A model generated the notes under the pieces. It was not told the origin of the DNA. It was given only the letters and a program-made list of their open reading frames with translations, and did no database searches. Positions 10,552 through 22,594 of a stretch of 64,000 nt of DNA are shown here, piece by piece. Every line of letters begins with the position of its first letter. Within the stretch, counting starts at the first letter, position 1. A program made the translations under genes and the position numbers. Where the stretch lies: UHGV virus genome UHGV-1682877; one strand, written 5' to 3'. Source of the stretch: a virus.

Positions 10552-10812
10552 TTGATTTTATAAAAAAATTATGATATAATATTAATAGAAAATAAGAAAT
10601 ACAATATTTTCTATACTAACCAATCAAAATTACTTGAGAGATATTACTACCTAAACTTCACTCTTAAAAAGAAGGTTCATAGGTGAGGTTCACGGATGGG
10701 TCACAAGGCTACGGCTTAACCAAGAAGATAAAACGCCTTTCGCTGAAGAGCGAAACATAAATACTAAGGTTCAATGATTGGTGACTTCTAAAATCGAAAA
10801 AGAACCTTATAT

Positions 10813-10888
10813 AGTGTTGTAGCTCAGTAGGTTAGAGCCAGCGACTTATAATCGCTAGACGTGGGTTCAAATCCCAACAGCACTACCA
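10813..10888 (+). tRNA. tRNA, anticodon TAT (Ile, reads AUA), putative
   Basis: cloverleaf; anticodon loop cttataa; T-arm gtgggttcaaatccca; CCA encoded. Confidence 0.6.
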
Positions 10889-11119
10889 TTAATAATTTAA
10901 ATGTAATAAAAGTTTGATGTATACAAATGTTGCGTCATTTGAATCCCTCCCTTTGCTACAATCAACGTTTGATTTACATTTGGAAAAAGTGATAGAAAAT
11001 CACATGGAATTACTTTTAGCCAACCGAGTATCAATGTTATTAACTAAAACTTTTTCACTTTTATATTAACTTTTAAATTATATCTTTTAGTTTGCGGTCT
11101 AAATTGTAAAACCGCATAT

Positions 11120-11197
11120 GGCACTGTAGCCCAATCGGAAGCAGGCAGTAGACTTAAAATCTATTCAGTGTGGGTTCGAGTCCCATCAGTGCTACCA
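11120..11197 (+). tRNA. non-canonical tRNA, anticodon TAA with short variable loop
   Basis: acceptor ggcactg/cagtgct; loop cttaaaa; T-arm gtgggttcgagtcccat; lacks the long variable arm expected for Leu. Confidence 0.5.
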
Positions 11198-11343
11198 TCA
11201 CAGATTGTTGTGCGATTTAACTGTGTTAAATAAATTAAAATCGCGTTGCACAGTTCTTCCTTTAAGGAGTAGTTATGTTATATAATGAATGAACTAAAAA
11301 ATTAATACTATGTTAGAATTGTATTAATTATTAAAAATTTTGG

Positions 11344-11372
11344 TTGACTTTAATTAATAAATATGTTATAAT
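11344..11372 (+). promoter_or_regulatory. canonical sigma70-like promoter driving tRNAs
   Basis: ttgact-17-tataat. Confidence 0.55.
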
Positions 11373-11398
11373 ATTTATATAAGATTAACCAAAGAAAT

Positions 11399-11480
11399 GT
11401 TGGATTGATGGAATGGTAGACATAGTAGCCTTAGAAGCTACCGCGTAAGCGTAAGAGTTCAAGTCTCTTATCCAACACCA
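11399..11480 (+). tRNA. tRNA-Leu (anticodon TAG)
   Basis: loop cttagaa, long variable arm, T-arm aagagttcaagtctctt, CCA. Confidence 0.7.
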
Positions 11481-11518
11481 TTAGACAGACACAGCAATCT
11501 TTATACAAGTAACGACAT

Positions 11519-11556
11519 GCAGGTTCGATTCCTGTCTTTACGCATCTGTAAAGTAG
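11519..11556 (+). other. orphan tRNA T-arm-like element fused to hairpin
   Basis: gcaggttcgattcctgt followed by ctttacg-catc-tgtaaag stem; no 5' half found. Confidence 0.35.
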
Positions 11557-11736
11557 CCTATTGGTAAGGTATTTATTTTGTTTAAAGCTGTCTAGTAAAT
11601 CTCAATTTGAAAAATAAAAAAAATTATGATATAATATTTATAGAAAGTTGAGGTTGATTTAATGTTTTATTGGGATTCCTTTGATTGTGAAATTCAGTCT
11701 GATGAAATTGGTAGTATTACTAATCAGGAGAATGAA

Positions 11737-11890
11737 TATGAAGAAACAGAAGAACAAGAATTTATGGGCGAAAAAGAGTGGCGATGAACTTCAAGAGTAT
11801 TTGCAATTTCGCCGCAGAGGTAGTAAAGTAAAACCTAAAAAGGGCAAAGGTTCCTTTAAAAGAAAAAAGAAATTTGGATCCATAGCGTAA
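11737..11890 (+). CDS. small Lys-rich basic protein (50 aa), putative
   Basis: ATG after RBS caggaga; ends inside tRNA-Asn 5' end. Confidence 0.3.
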
Positions 11891-11952
11891 TTGGTTAGCG
11901 CAACGGACTGTTAATCCGTGGGTTGTTCGTTCAAGTCGAACTGGATCCGCCA
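11876..11952 (+). tRNA. tRNA-Asn (anticodon GTT)
   Basis: acceptor ggatcca/tggatcc; loop ctgttaa; CCA. Confidence 0.7.
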
Positions 11953-11965
11953 TATATTTTAATTA

Positions 11966-12041
11966 GCTCCTATCGACAAGTTGGTTAAGTCGCTAGCCCT
12001 TCAAGCTAGAGTCGCGGGATCGTAGCCCGCTAGGAGTACCA
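11966..12041 (+). tRNA. tRNA-Glu (anticodon TTC), atypical T-loop
   Basis: acceptor gctccta/taggagt; loop ccttcaa; T-loop atcgtag. Confidence 0.55.
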
Positions 12042-12120
12042 TAATGAAAGACACATACAGCAATTTATTTAATATTATAAAAAATGGCAGAAAATTTTTA
12101 TACAAGTGTCTTGTTTATAT

Positions 12121-12177
12121 ATTGCAGGCAGGTTAAAGCCCTGTGCGTCGCTGGTTCAAATCCAGCCTGTGATACCA
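12121..12177 (+). other. mini tRNA-like element lacking D-arm
   Basis: acceptor attgcag/ctgtgat, one hairpin, canonical T-arm gctggttcaaatccagc, CCA; only 57 nt. Confidence 0.35.
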
Positions 12178-12179
12178 TT

Positions 12180-12253
12180 GCGGAGTAGAGAAACGGTTAT
12201 CTCGCAACCCTCATAAGGTTGAGAAAGGTGGTTCGACTCCATCCTCTCGCAGA
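12180..12253 (+). tRNA. tRNA-Met (anticodon CAT; could be Ile2 or initiator)
   Basis: D-arm, anticodon stem caacc/ggttg with loop ctcataa, T-arm ggtggttcgactccatc; weak acceptor pairing. Confidence 0.5.
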
Positions 12254-12373
12254 GACATAATCAACCACCTCCACGCGGTATGTCTTGGGTAAAGCGAACG
12301 GTTGAATGATTTTGGGTACATTTGGATAATTTAGTAGCCAAAAAAACTCCATAATATAATGGAGGGATGTATA

Positions 12374-20926: not shown

Positions 20927-20956
20927 TATATAGAAAGTTAAGAGAGGAGAAAATTT

Positions 20957-21151
20957 ATGAATAAGATTATTTTTAAAGCTAAGAATTGGACTATGACTTT
21001 TAGAACTAGACAGCAAGCCCTTAATTTTATCCGTAAAAATTCCATTAATCCTTATACTGCCAATATTTTGGTTCTTATTGGTACTCAGGATGTATTTCAT
21101 TTGGGTTCTCCTCGTGCAGATCAGTATTTTGGACTGAAAAGAAAAAATTGA
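20957..21151 (+). CDS. hypothetical small protein
   Basis: ORF track. Confidence 0.4.
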   Translation: MNKIIFKAKNWTMTFRTRQQALNFIRKNSINPYTANILVLIGTQDVFHLGSPRADQYFGLKRKN

Positions 21152-21176
21152 AAATTTAAAAAAAATATGATATAAT
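21148..21176 (+). promoter_or_regulatory. promoter for tRNA island 2
   Basis: ttgaaa-17-tataat. Confidence 0.5.
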
Positions 21177-21263
21177 ATTTAAGGAAAGACTTGTACAGCA
21201 AATAAAGCTTAAAAGCACTTGACTGGTAATCAAGAAGAAAATGAGTCTTGCTTAAATATTCAT

Positions 21264-21349
21264 GTGGGCGTGATGAAATAGGAAAACATATCGCACTTAA
21301 AATGCGCTGCTAATCTAGCTTGTGGGTTCGAGTCCCATCGCCCACACCA
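21264..21349 (+). tRNA. tRNA-Leu (anticodon TAA)
   Basis: acceptor gtgggcg/cgcccac, loop cttaaaa, long variable arm, CCA. Confidence 0.65.
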
Positions 21350-21350
21350 T

Positions 21351-21390
21351 CTTTAAAACTGATACTCTTTACTATTAGTTTTAAAGATAA
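21351..21390 (+). other. perfect 12 bp inverted-repeat hairpin between tRNAs
   Basis: atctttaaaact ... agttttaaagat. Confidence 0.5.
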
Positions 21391-21413
21391 CAATGAACTT
21401 GAGTTTACTGATA

Positions 21414-21491
21414 TGCGTCTGTAACTCAACTGGATAGAGTAACTGCCTTCTAAGCAGTAAGCCAGGGGTTCGAGTCCCTTCAGGCGTACCA
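21414..21491 (+). tRNA. tRNA-Arg (anticodon TCT)
   Basis: loop cttctaa, T-arm aggggttcgagtccctt, CCA. Confidence 0.65.
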
Positions 21492-21676
21492 AGCAGAACT
21501 ATAATAGGCAACAAAAGGAAATAGCTGATGTGAAAGGCATCTTGTCTTGCTGACATGACAATAAACTTTGAACGGGCGTATAATGCGTATCGTGCCTGCG
21601 GGTGTAGAGTCAGAAAAGTAGGGGAATAATTGAGGAGCAGCTATAGGTGAGGCCCCACCTCCACCTTCCTTAATAT

Positions 21677-21768
21677 GGGGCAATGGCAGAGTTTGGCTTA
21701 TTGCACTTGTCTTGAAAACAAGCAAACTAGCAATAGTTTCACTGGTTCAAATCCAGTTTGCCCCGCCA
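21677..21768 (+). tRNA. tRNA-Ser (anticodon TGA)
   Basis: acceptor ggggcaa/ttgcccc, loop cttgaaa, long variable arm, CCA. Confidence 0.65.
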
Positions 21769-21772
21769 ATAA

Positions 21773-21846
21773 GCAGGTATAGTTTAATGATAGAACTCTG
21801 GACTTCCACTCCAGCGATGCGGGTTTGATTCCCGTTACTTGCTCCA
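21773..21846 (+). tRNA. tRNA-Gly (anticodon TCC)
   Basis: loop cttccac, T-arm gcgggtttgattcccgt, CCA. Confidence 0.65.
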
Positions 21847-21909
21847 TAAAGATACTCACAGCAATTTATTTTTTATAATGGGTATAAAAAAATAAAGTAT
21901 CTTGTATTT

Positions 21910-21985
21910 GCTAACGTGGCGCAACAGGTAGCGCAGCGGCCTTGTAAACCGCAGGTTAAGAGTTCAAGTCTCTTCGTTAGCTCCA
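21910..21985 (+). tRNA. tRNA-Thr (anticodon TGT)
   Basis: acceptor gctaacg/cgttagc, loop cttgtaa, CCA. Confidence 0.65.
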
Positions 21986-21987
21986 AT

Positions 21988-22063
21988 GGTTCGCTAGTTC
22001 ATTAGGTAGAACACTTGCCTTTTAAGCAAGATGTGCTGGGTTCAAATCCCAGGCGAGCCACCA
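21988..22063 (+). tRNA. tRNA-Lys (anticodon TTT)
   Basis: loop cttttaa, T-arm ctgggttcaaatcccag, CCA. Confidence 0.7.
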
Positions 22064-22437
22064 TTAGTCTTATCATACAGACGTAAAATAAATGAGTACC
22101 CCAGATAATGCTGAACTGGGTATCCGGGTATCGGGAGAATTAGTCTGGCAACTGTTGAAGCGACGATACTGCGTGACCAGGCATAAGGGCGACCTAAGTC
22201 GTTAGCTATGGGTAAACAGGTTGATAGCCGCATAGTAAAATGTTTCCTTGCGTCATTAAAATGCAAGGCGTTATAGGAGAGACGGCGGAGCATTACTCAT
22301 CTCCACTCCTTCTGCTACGAGAAGTAGAAAATCAAGGCTTCTGAGAAATGCTAATGAGAATGGTCAACCTCTGATTAAAAAAGGACTAAAGCTAGCTTAG
22401 GTTTTAGGTTATCCTCCTTACGAGGGAAAACCTTATT
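22064..22437 (+). ncRNA. structured non-coding region, candidate novel ncRNA
   Basis: ~370 nt with no RBS-supported ORF, locally GC-richer, multiple hairpins (ccttgc/gcaagg, cttct/agaag, nested ggtt-cctc/gagg-aacc). Confidence 0.3.
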
Positions 22438-22522
22438 TGCCAGAATGTTGGAATTGGTAGACAAAGAAGTCTCAAAAACTTTCGCTTTATGCGTGCGGGT
22501 TCGAATCCCGCTTCTGGTACCA
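22438..22522 (+). tRNA. tRNA-Leu (anticodon CAA)
   Basis: acceptor gccagaa/ttctggt, loop ctcaaaa, long variable arm, T-arm gcgggttcgaatcccgc, CCA. Confidence 0.65.
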
Positions 22523-22594
22523 TTATATTTTTAAATTATTTATAAAGACCTTAACAGCAAAGACTTGGACAGTAAATCCGTAGCTTAAAGTTGC

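Follow-up and report, generated by a model that had tools for sequence, protein, structure and literature searches.

Particles of Ro60 and Y RNAs occur in animals, some bacteria and a few phages, and to our knowledge Ro60 partner RNAs have so far been recognised only beside canonical TROVE proteins, through a GNCGAA-type motif. Published partners display a stem formed by their 5' and 3' ends and, within it, a bulged conserved motif whose recognition involves chiefly the 5' strand. This bulge motif is GGUCCGA in animals, GNCGAAN0-1G in bacteria, where it is the proposed contact of Rsr, and CGAA in phage phiLo, and the distal module of the bacterial partner RNAs is transfer RNA (tRNA)-like (PMC4201824, PMC12135203). 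The DNA analysed here, the whole of which is termed the window, is a stretch of 64,000 nucleotides (nt) from the virus genome UHGV-1682877, AT-rich and phage-like (~30% G+C), in which two islands together hold 17 tRNA genes. An earlier note on this DNA described a short motif recurring in the islands and suggested that it may be a processing signal or the upstream half of a tRNA-specific promoter. Eight RNA elements in the window are closed by a stem-plus-bulge handle, N-AGAY-NN../..NN-RUCU-N'-G, of which the motif makes up the 5' half; an unpaired CAGCAA(W) follows the 5' strand of the stem. Since the elements share the plan of Ro60 partners, though their motif differs and the protein is divergent, we consider it fairly probable that they are Y-RNA-like partners of a Ro60-like DUF2828 protein encoded at 22735-24258, for which the handle would provide the binding site, and that they would be released by tRNA processing.

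The motif forms a stem-plus-bulge handle

Eight copies of the motif lie in the tRNA islands, with AGAC or AGAT beginning at 11483, 12049, 13013, 13406, 13602, 21187, 21850 and 22546. All six copies listed in the earlier note are present, and those at 13602 (AGATGCTTCCAGCAA) and 22546 (AGACCTTAACAGCAA) had been overlooked. The literal 14-mer ACATACAGCAATTT has two exact occurrences in the window and, as written, is weak, with five matches at up to two mismatches against 1.6 expected (2 of 100 shuffles as high). The generalised AGAY-N5-CAGCAA (AGAYNNNNNCAGCAA) is strong, with 18 matches at up to one mismatch against 7.8 expected (0 of 100 shuffles as high). Exact AGAY-N4-[AC]CAGCAA, a pattern drawn up after the copies had been inspected, gave nine matches against 0.14 expected (300 Markov-1 simulations, maximum 3), eight of which are on the + strand within the islands. 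The comparison with shuffled sequence that the earlier note proposed as a check thus gives strong enrichment for the generalised AGAY pattern and a weak one for the 14-mer, which alone is barely above chance, and a structural definition was adopted in its place.

Every copy in the window has a downstream complement ending in RUCU-N-G, 50-160 nt away, and the motif is therefore the 5' strand of a closing helix, termed P1. Each element comprises P1, a CAGCAA-type bulge and an interior, with total lengths of 56-162 nt. In each of seven elements folded to minimum energy, P1 is formed and CAGCAA stays unpaired. The z-scores of the folds are modest (-0.7 to -3.7) and amount to only -0.7 to -0.8 for the AU-rich elements B, C and E. 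Because the z-scores are weak for AU-rich elements, the structural case rests on covariation among relatives.

Eighty related viral loci were gathered with open reading frame (ORF) 22735-24258 as query. In these loci ~130 motif copies share the strand of the Ro-like gene and six are on the opposite strand, with most copies located upstream of it. Of 116 non-identical copies, 89% form three or more pairs in addition to the fixed AGAY/RUCU, compared with 23% after 5' arms had been swapped between copies. When 78 distinct 5'/3' end pairs are aligned without gaps, pairing is seen in 85% of cells and covariation scores 0.43; shuffles give 0.14 (0 of 500 as high as 0.43), and sliding the partner strand gives at most 0.14. 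Seven of the ten helix pairs vary on both sides, and the flanking pair, which lies outside the selection, is A-U 54 times, U-A ten times and G-C nine times. G-U pairs occur in the helix and therefore favour an RNA on this strand. The G two nt past the helix is 99% conserved, though it was no part of the selection. An independent scan of viral contigs with one exact 15-mer returned 123 matches, 71 of which have the full handle and sit in loci rich in tRNAs or next to a Ro-like gene homologue; matches without the partner strand have almost no tRNAs close by and look like chance. A covariance model built from the handle alone (R1) finds the short elements B, E and F and none of the others, as the long interiors exceed the tolerance of its local-end state. 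In treating the motif as non-random and as a property of the RNA of the tRNA islands, the earlier note is borne out.

The DUF2828 protein and its genomic association with the handle

The Ro60-like protein gene (22735..24258, +) begins 57 nt past element G and encodes 507 residues comprising DUF2828 and DUF7788/vWA with D-T-S-x-S as the MIDAS (metal ion-dependent adhesion site) motif. It belongs to PHROG 850, 'RNA-binding protein'. The best structural matches of the predicted fold are Ro60, Rsr and phage Ro60, including phiLo Ro60, and the protein displays the HEAT-repeat ring and C-terminal vWA domain with MIDAS that are expected of Ro60 proteins. A profile search against PDB sequences found no Ro60, only spurious Nup93 matches. 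With no sequence match either to TROVE or to solved Ro60 proteins, the link to Ro60 therefore rests on fold comparison.

Among phages the DUF2828 family is much commoner than the known particles of Ro60 and Y RNAs. Homologues of the protein were revealed by tblastn in 704 GenBank phage records from many host genera, with FelixO1-like, P100/A511-like, Staphylococcus, Campylobacter, Vibrio and Mycobacterium phages among them; no GenBank phage matched the island itself by megablast. The homologue in cluster L mycobacteriophages is annotated 'Ro-like RNA binding protein', and annotation of the DUF2828 family goes at most to 'RNA-binding protein'. Nine cultured-phage loci were submitted to a strict search for CAGCAA, a helix of at least 7 base pairs (bp) ending 0-3 nt upstream, an element of up to ~165 nt and a following G. 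This identified 23 handles on the strand of the gene versus three on the opposite strand; 20 strict handles lie no more than 2.7 kb from the gene, and several are in tandem, directly adjoining. Convincing handles were found in eight of the nine loci, and the association of handle and gene extends across phyla. All eight window elements are co-oriented with the Ro-like gene, and the same-strand neighbourhood is also present in the 80 viral loci and in the eight cultured phages.

Bacillus phage Tsamsa has three elements, one of which, 123 nt long (10239-10361), is YrlA-like. A single element lies 45 nt upstream of the gene in Enterococcus VRE9_4, tandem elements are located just upstream of gp165 in Listeria P100, and four elements stand among the tRNAs after gp42 in the FelixO1-type FO1a. 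Mycobacteriophage UPIE carries three tandem elements 42-244 nt after gp53, the middle one of which matches YrlA at 39.8 bits. Two tandem elements are found 22-109 nt upstream in Campylobacter CP81 and three 20-169 nt downstream in Staphylococcus 6ec, while Sinorhizobium phiN3 has two by the strict search and three by a looser scan, with helices of 14-21 bp. In UPIE, 6ec and phiN3 the nearest tRNA is more than 1 kb from the elements, or there is none in the fetched stretch; the elements therefore follow the gene and not the tRNAs. The sequence of the helix varies between lineages (AGAC.., UAGGAAUC, UGGACUCU, AUGGUACU), while CAGCAA and the 3' G are constant. Five of the cultured-phage loci gave no Rfam match at the gathering score. 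In CP81, an annotated 45-codon hypothetical protein, ORF140 (L207, 3837-3974), overlaps the tandem handles at 3799-3862 and 3871-3949 and may be a mis-annotated RNA region.

The eight elements of the window

Element A (11482..11595, +, 114 nt) begins 2 nt past tRNA-Leu(tag) and is closed by P1 UAGACAG/CUGUCUAG, followed by the bulge ACACAGCAAU. Its interior comprises a T-arm (GCAGGUUCGAUUCCUGU), a closed hairpin (CUUUAC-GCAUCU-GUAAAG) and a D-arm-like segment (UAGCCUAUUGGUAAGG), which is the YrlA-type layout. The element aligns end to end with Rfam YrlA (RF02553) at 26.6 bits, against a gathering score of 69, with an E-value of 0.038 in a 13.5-kb search and 3.8e-4 in a 133-nt search, and its minimum-energy fold closes P1 (z -2.0). 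Apart from tRNAs, this sub-threshold YrlA match was all that the Rfam scan returned. Element B (12048..12113, +, 66 nt; P1 AAGACAC/GUGUCUUG, bulge AUACAGCAAU) is located 7 nt past tRNA-Glu, has an AU-rich hairpin as interior and scores 35.6 bits with R1 (E 1.2e-6). Element C (13012..13126, +, 115 nt; P1 UAGACUC/GAGUCUAG, bulge AUACAGCAAA) has a fold that closes P1 and holds a complete tRNA-like body (13040-13112) with an 8-nt anticodon loop, CUUGAAAA, which ARAGORN reports as tRNA-??? with a 4-base anticodon and which scores 53.1 bits with the Rfam tRNA model. Its motif copy at 13013 follows the GIY-YIG gene, in agreement with what the earlier note said of a homing endonuclease, and in a relative (L001) the element begins 4 nt past tRNA-Met.

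Element D (13405..13566, +, 162 nt; P1 UAGACACA/UGUGUCUAG, bulge UACAGCAAU) lies 3 nt past tRNA-Pro and is kept in L001; its AU-rich interior has no tRNA-like feature. Element H (13601..13743, +, 143 nt; P1 AAGAUGCU/AGCAUCUUG, bulge UCCAGCAAU) ends 4 nt ahead of tRNA-Gln, folds with a z-score of -2.8 and is likewise kept in L001. The interior of element H consists mostly of a ~30-nt direct repeat, AAATATATTTCTATAA[A/G]GTTTATTAA (13640-13735).

In the second island, element E (21186..21250, +, 65 nt; P1 AAGACUUGU/AUGAGUCUUG, bulge ACAGCAAA) ends 13 nt ahead of tRNA-Leu and scores 30.7 bits with R1 (E 2e-5). It contains an anticodon-arm-like hairpin, CUUGA-CUGGUAA-UCAAG, with a 5-bp stem and the 7-nt loop CUGGUAA (GGU). 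Because its start is ~10 nt past a -10 box, element E probably begins at the 5' end of a primary transcript. Element F (21849..21904, +, 56 nt) is the minimal form, located between tRNA-Gly (+3 nt) and tRNA-Thr (-5 nt). Its 8-bp P1 (AAGAUACU/AGUAUCUU-G) is separated from a perfect 12-bp AU hairpin by CAGCAA as a 5' bulge (CACAGCAA); the fold has a z-score of -2.7 and the R1 score is 35.4 bits (E 1.3e-6).

Element G (22545..22677, +, 133 nt) ends 57 nt ahead of the Ro-like gene and has a short P1, AGACC/GGUCU, followed by the bulge UUAACAGCAAA; its homologues in L076, L078, L079, L068 and L080 have a P1 of 6-7 bp. By inspection, the interior comprises a hairpin (GGA-CAGUAAA-UCC), a T-arm (GCAGGUUCAAAUCCUGC), a closed acceptor-like stem (CCUCCAC-ACCAUAU-GUGGAGG), which carries ACCA in its loop, and a D-arm-like segment, with the parts, as judged by eye, in the order seen in element A. 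Its fold has a z-score of -3.7, and the element gave no Rfam YrlA match.

Other features were observed in the islands. Right after tRNA-Met, a 36-nt hairpin at 12252-12287 has the handle helix (G-AGACAUA ... UAUGUCU-U-G), with AUCAAC replacing CAGCAA and no cargo, and may be a degenerate or truncated element. In the region 500-600 the close relative L001 has a single tRNA-Met, with element C 4 nt on; at the equivalent site the window holds a truncated tRNA-like remnant ending in ACCA (12125-12178), a different tRNA-Met (12179-12250) and a free-standing GIY-YIG gene (12359-13006), and the difference at 12125-13006 resembles a polymorphism in a homing-endonuclease cassette. At 22064-22438, 10588-10812 and 21492-21676, three long intergenic stretches of comparatively high G+C content gave no Rfam match and no folding signal (z -0.4, -1.6 and +0.6, respectively).

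Cargo of the elements and placement among tRNAs

Cargo and placement were counted over 237 unique elements from all fetched loci. The interiors comprise YrlA-type tRNA-like domains, whole tRNA-like bodies, anticodon-arm-like hairpins and plain AU hairpins, and element lengths fall into a class of 60-80 nt and a class of 100-140 nt. T-loop sequences are present in 103 elements, and 7-nt loops of the form YU-NNN-R-N number 104 versus two in shuffled interiors. After T-loops the commonest 7-nt loop, found 12 times, is CUUUUAA, which is the loop of tRNA-Lys(UUU), a classic anticodon-nuclease target. CUUUUAA on a 4-5 bp stem recurs, together with loops of the GCCAUUUUU type, in short elements (L012, L016, L046, L053, L065, L070).

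Elements begin 0-9 nt past a tRNA 3' end in 24% of cases and end 3-12 nt ahead of the next tRNA in 34%, with no preference for a tRNA isotype. In the window, copies follow tRNA-Leu(tag), tRNA-Glu, tRNA-Pro and tRNA-Gly as the earlier note had it, at 3-8 nt beyond the tRNA 3' end and not at the 5-10 nt given there. The TATAAT-like boxes that it placed after several copies exist as well, and belong to AU-rich hairpin stems inside the elements. Of its two readings, the processing signal keeps some plausibility because element ends abut tRNA ends, while the promoter half is unsupported. Many related gut-phage loci, including L010, L015, L018, L025, L040, L059 and L063, carry tRNA(CUA) genes, amber suppressors labelled 'Pyl' by ARAGORN, often directly beside a handle element. 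Stop codons may be recoded in these phages; no tRNA(CUA) is present in the window.

Genes neighbouring the Ro-like gene

Downstream of the Ro-like gene lie genes for an RNA ligase (25760-27037, +; Pfam RNA_ligase), a GatB/YqeY-like protein (27040-27489, +) and a metallophosphoesterase (27914-28699, +), a set to which PHROGs 968, 1460 and 246 were assigned, and this is an RNA-repair-type neighbourhood. A PhoH-like ATPase gene is also found in this region (25760-32350), and a radical-SAM protein gene (18794-20053) lies between the two tRNA islands. In Tsamsa and VRE9_4, PhoH-like and phosphoesterase genes likewise flank the tRNA/Ro-like region.

Comparison with known Ro60 partner RNAs

The handle elements share several properties with YrlA (RF02553; Chen et al. 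2014, PMC4201824). In both, the RNA genes lie beside, and on the same strand as, the gene of a Ro60-type ring protein; a terminal helix is formed between the two RNA ends and has a conserved unpaired motif in its 5' strand; and there are several copies per genome. The T-arm/closed acceptor stem/D-arm domain of YrlA is observed in window elements A and G, in Tsamsa 10239-10361 and in UPIE 7516-7637. Unlike YrlA, the elements have as putative partner a DUF2828 protein that is Ro-like by fold only, without a TROVE sequence match. Most of them carry other cargo, namely anticodon-arm-like hairpins, whole tRNA-like bodies or plain hairpins, and up to eight handle copies are interleaved with tRNA genes. 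In the window the YrlA-type domain is absent from B, D, E, F and H, and element C has a tRNA-like body in ordinary order. No GNCGAA was found at the handle-motif position in the window elements, and CAGCAA(W) is present in all lineages examined.

Thermus phage phiLo also encodes a Ro60-fold protein with stem-bulge-stem partner RNAs, Yrl1 and Yrl2, just upstream of the gene; there, in contrast, the bulge is CGAA, the protein is a canonical TROVE protein and the RNAs lie outside tRNA arrays (PMC12135203). The metazoan Y RNAs of Ro60, as far as they are described by Stein et al. 2005 (via PMC4201824), likewise have a bulged terminal helix, the 5' strand of which is chiefly read, together with a distal module that varies and sets partners. 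They differ, in the same account, in lacking a tRNA-like module, in the motif GGUCCGA, in being RNA polymerase III transcripts and in their La-binding U tail. For Y-RNA-like RNAs, the new features would be the handle motif, the cargo types and the divergent putative protein partner. Rfam 15 has no family capturing the handle RNAs, and no RNA partner for DUF2828 proteins was found described in the searchable literature, coverage of which is incomplete, so that an earlier mention is possible.

Several observations weigh against the assignment as Y-RNA-like partners of the DUF2828 protein. On the RNA side, the handle motif is CAGCAA(W) with a 3' G and not GNCGAAN0-1G, scores with RF02553 reach 27-40 bits against the gathering score, and the YrlA layout is found in just two of the eight window elements. 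On the protein side, Pfam at E up to 10 returned DUF2828, DUF7788 and a weak VWA_2 only, with no TROVE, and the protein model is moderate, with a predicted local distance difference test (pLDDT) value of 74 and template modelling (TM) scores of 0.33-0.46. In KVP40, the ninth cultured-phage locus, no convincing element lies near the gene. Moreover, tRNA clusters and the Ro-like gene are often linked themselves, which confounds part of the association, and the strand counts were made in loci gathered through the DUF2828 gene. The suggested link between protein and handle rests on genomic association and on analogy with the known particles.

Alternative explanations

The handle could instead be a processing or stability device of tRNA-operon transcripts that acts independently of the Ro-like protein, either as a short, bulged clamp recognised by a host or phage nuclease for cuts between tRNAs or as protection of spacer RNA. 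The window elements do sit within tRNA arrays, and the elements starting just past a tRNA or ending just before one (24% and 34% of the 237, as given above) agree with such a role. Most elements, however, have no directly adjacent tRNA, and those of UPIE, 6ec and phiN3 adjoin the Ro-like gene at sites remote from any tRNA found. A spacer signal has no need of tRNA-like cargo, and a helix of 7-10 bp is short as a substrate for RNase III. The handle travels with the Ro60-like gene even where no tRNA is near, and a protein-binding handle is therefore favoured over a tRNA trailer signal, which we regard as rather unlikely.

Terminal inverted repeats, multiple copies, a copy number that varies among relatives and the GIY-YIG gene adjoining element C would also suit mobile DNA (miniature inverted-repeat elements) or targets of homing endonucleases, with inverted repeats that give the appearance of a stem. 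This reading is very unlikely in view of the strict strand bias, in the orientation of the tRNAs and the Ro-like gene. In addition, the G-U pairs of the helix would read as A-C mismatches on the opposite strand, the conserved CAGCAA is asymmetric and confined to one arm, the cargo is tRNA-like and itself co-oriented, and the endonuclease cassette lies beside element C, not within it.

Self-cleaving ribozymes that trim tRNA 3' ends have a precedent in the theta ribozymes of gut phages, which resemble the hepatitis delta virus (HDV) ribozyme; as small structured RNAs a few nt past phage tRNA 3' ends, they directly follow tRNAs, often suppressor tRNAs (PMC10879173), and loci related to the window carry tRNA(CUA) genes. 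Theta ribozymes, in contrast to the handle with its open, variable interior, have a nested double pseudoknot, a fixed small size and a catalytic C, in J4/2 (PMC10879173). In an HDV-like fold, further helices (P4, and P2 with its 3' strand) have to come after the 3' strand of P1; in the handle RNAs, as judged by inspection of the topology, nothing of the element extends beyond the closing helix, and the next tRNA may begin 4-5 nt on. The interiors range from ~40 to 150 nt, some with tRNA-like domains, and no Rfam match to HDV, hammerhead, twister or similar ribozymes was obtained at E up to 1. A theta ribozyme identity was rejected on this mismatch of topology and on the lack of a ribozyme family match, and self-cleavage appears most improbable.

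The promoter reading, in which the motif is the upstream, -35-like half (TAGACA) of tRNA-specific promoters or another transcription signal, draws on the resemblance of TAGACA to TTGACA, on AT-rich TATAAT-like strings after some copies and on one weak 9/12 match at 13405-13432, but is barely credible and was rejected, since promoter-like sites are no commoner than in shuffles, the strong ones (11/12, extended -10; 10552-10580, 11344-11372, 11607-11635, 20897-20925 and 21148-21176) sit at other positions, the spacing from motif to TATAAT is irregular (15-20 nt, as against the 16-18 nt of a sigma-70 promoter), the copy at 21187 is downstream and not upstream of a -10 box, the covarying complementary strand 50-160 nt downstream is left unaccounted for, CAGCAA persists in lineages whose P1 differs from AGAC, and promoter and terminator scans gave no support.

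A proposed ribonucleoprotein system and its implications

On the reading of the eight RNAs as Y-RNA-like partners of the DUF2828 protein, putative island promoters at 10552, 11344, 11607, 20897 and 21148 would drive their transcription together with the tRNAs. The gaps of 2-7 nt to upstream tRNAs and of 4-13 nt to downstream ones suggest that RNase P and 3'-end processing of the flanking tRNAs probably free the elements. The handle, which closes off the variable cargo in each case, would most likely be bound by the DUF2828 protein of 22735-24258, with CAGCAA replacing GNCGAA/GGUCCGA. More speculatively, and by analogy with known particles, the cargo may tether or gate the ring protein toward tRNA-handling enzymes or damaged tRNAs during infection. 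The motif, the covarying helix, the tRNA-like cargo, the Ro60-like fold and the association across phyla are observed features; binding, processing and function of the handle RNAs are proposals.

On a broader and more tentative view, which we think possible but doubtful, DUF2828 proteins and CAGCAA-handle RNAs may constitute a widespread modular phage ribonucleoprotein system, in which a universal handle is combined with interchangeable mimics of tRNA parts that serve as anti-defence decoys, sensors or repair scaffolds. If so, the mimics would be isoacceptor anticodon arms (e.g. Lys-UUU), T/D-arm elbows and whole tRNA bodies, and the particles would counter host tRNA-targeting defences alongside the phage tRNAs, RNA ligase and phosphoesterase. 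Such a system would be found in phages used as models or in applications, among them FelixO1, P100 and the cluster L mycobacteriophages.

The handle provides a searchable signature, consisting of a terminal helix, a 5' CAGCAA bulge and a 3' G, that would assign partner RNAs to the DUF2828 family. Handle RNAs would also account for many seemingly 'empty' spacers in phage tRNA clusters. The cargo of tRNA parts ties the system to a current question, namely how phages withstand the anticodon nucleases of their hosts, and the role of Ro-like proteins in infection would become directly testable in culturable phages.

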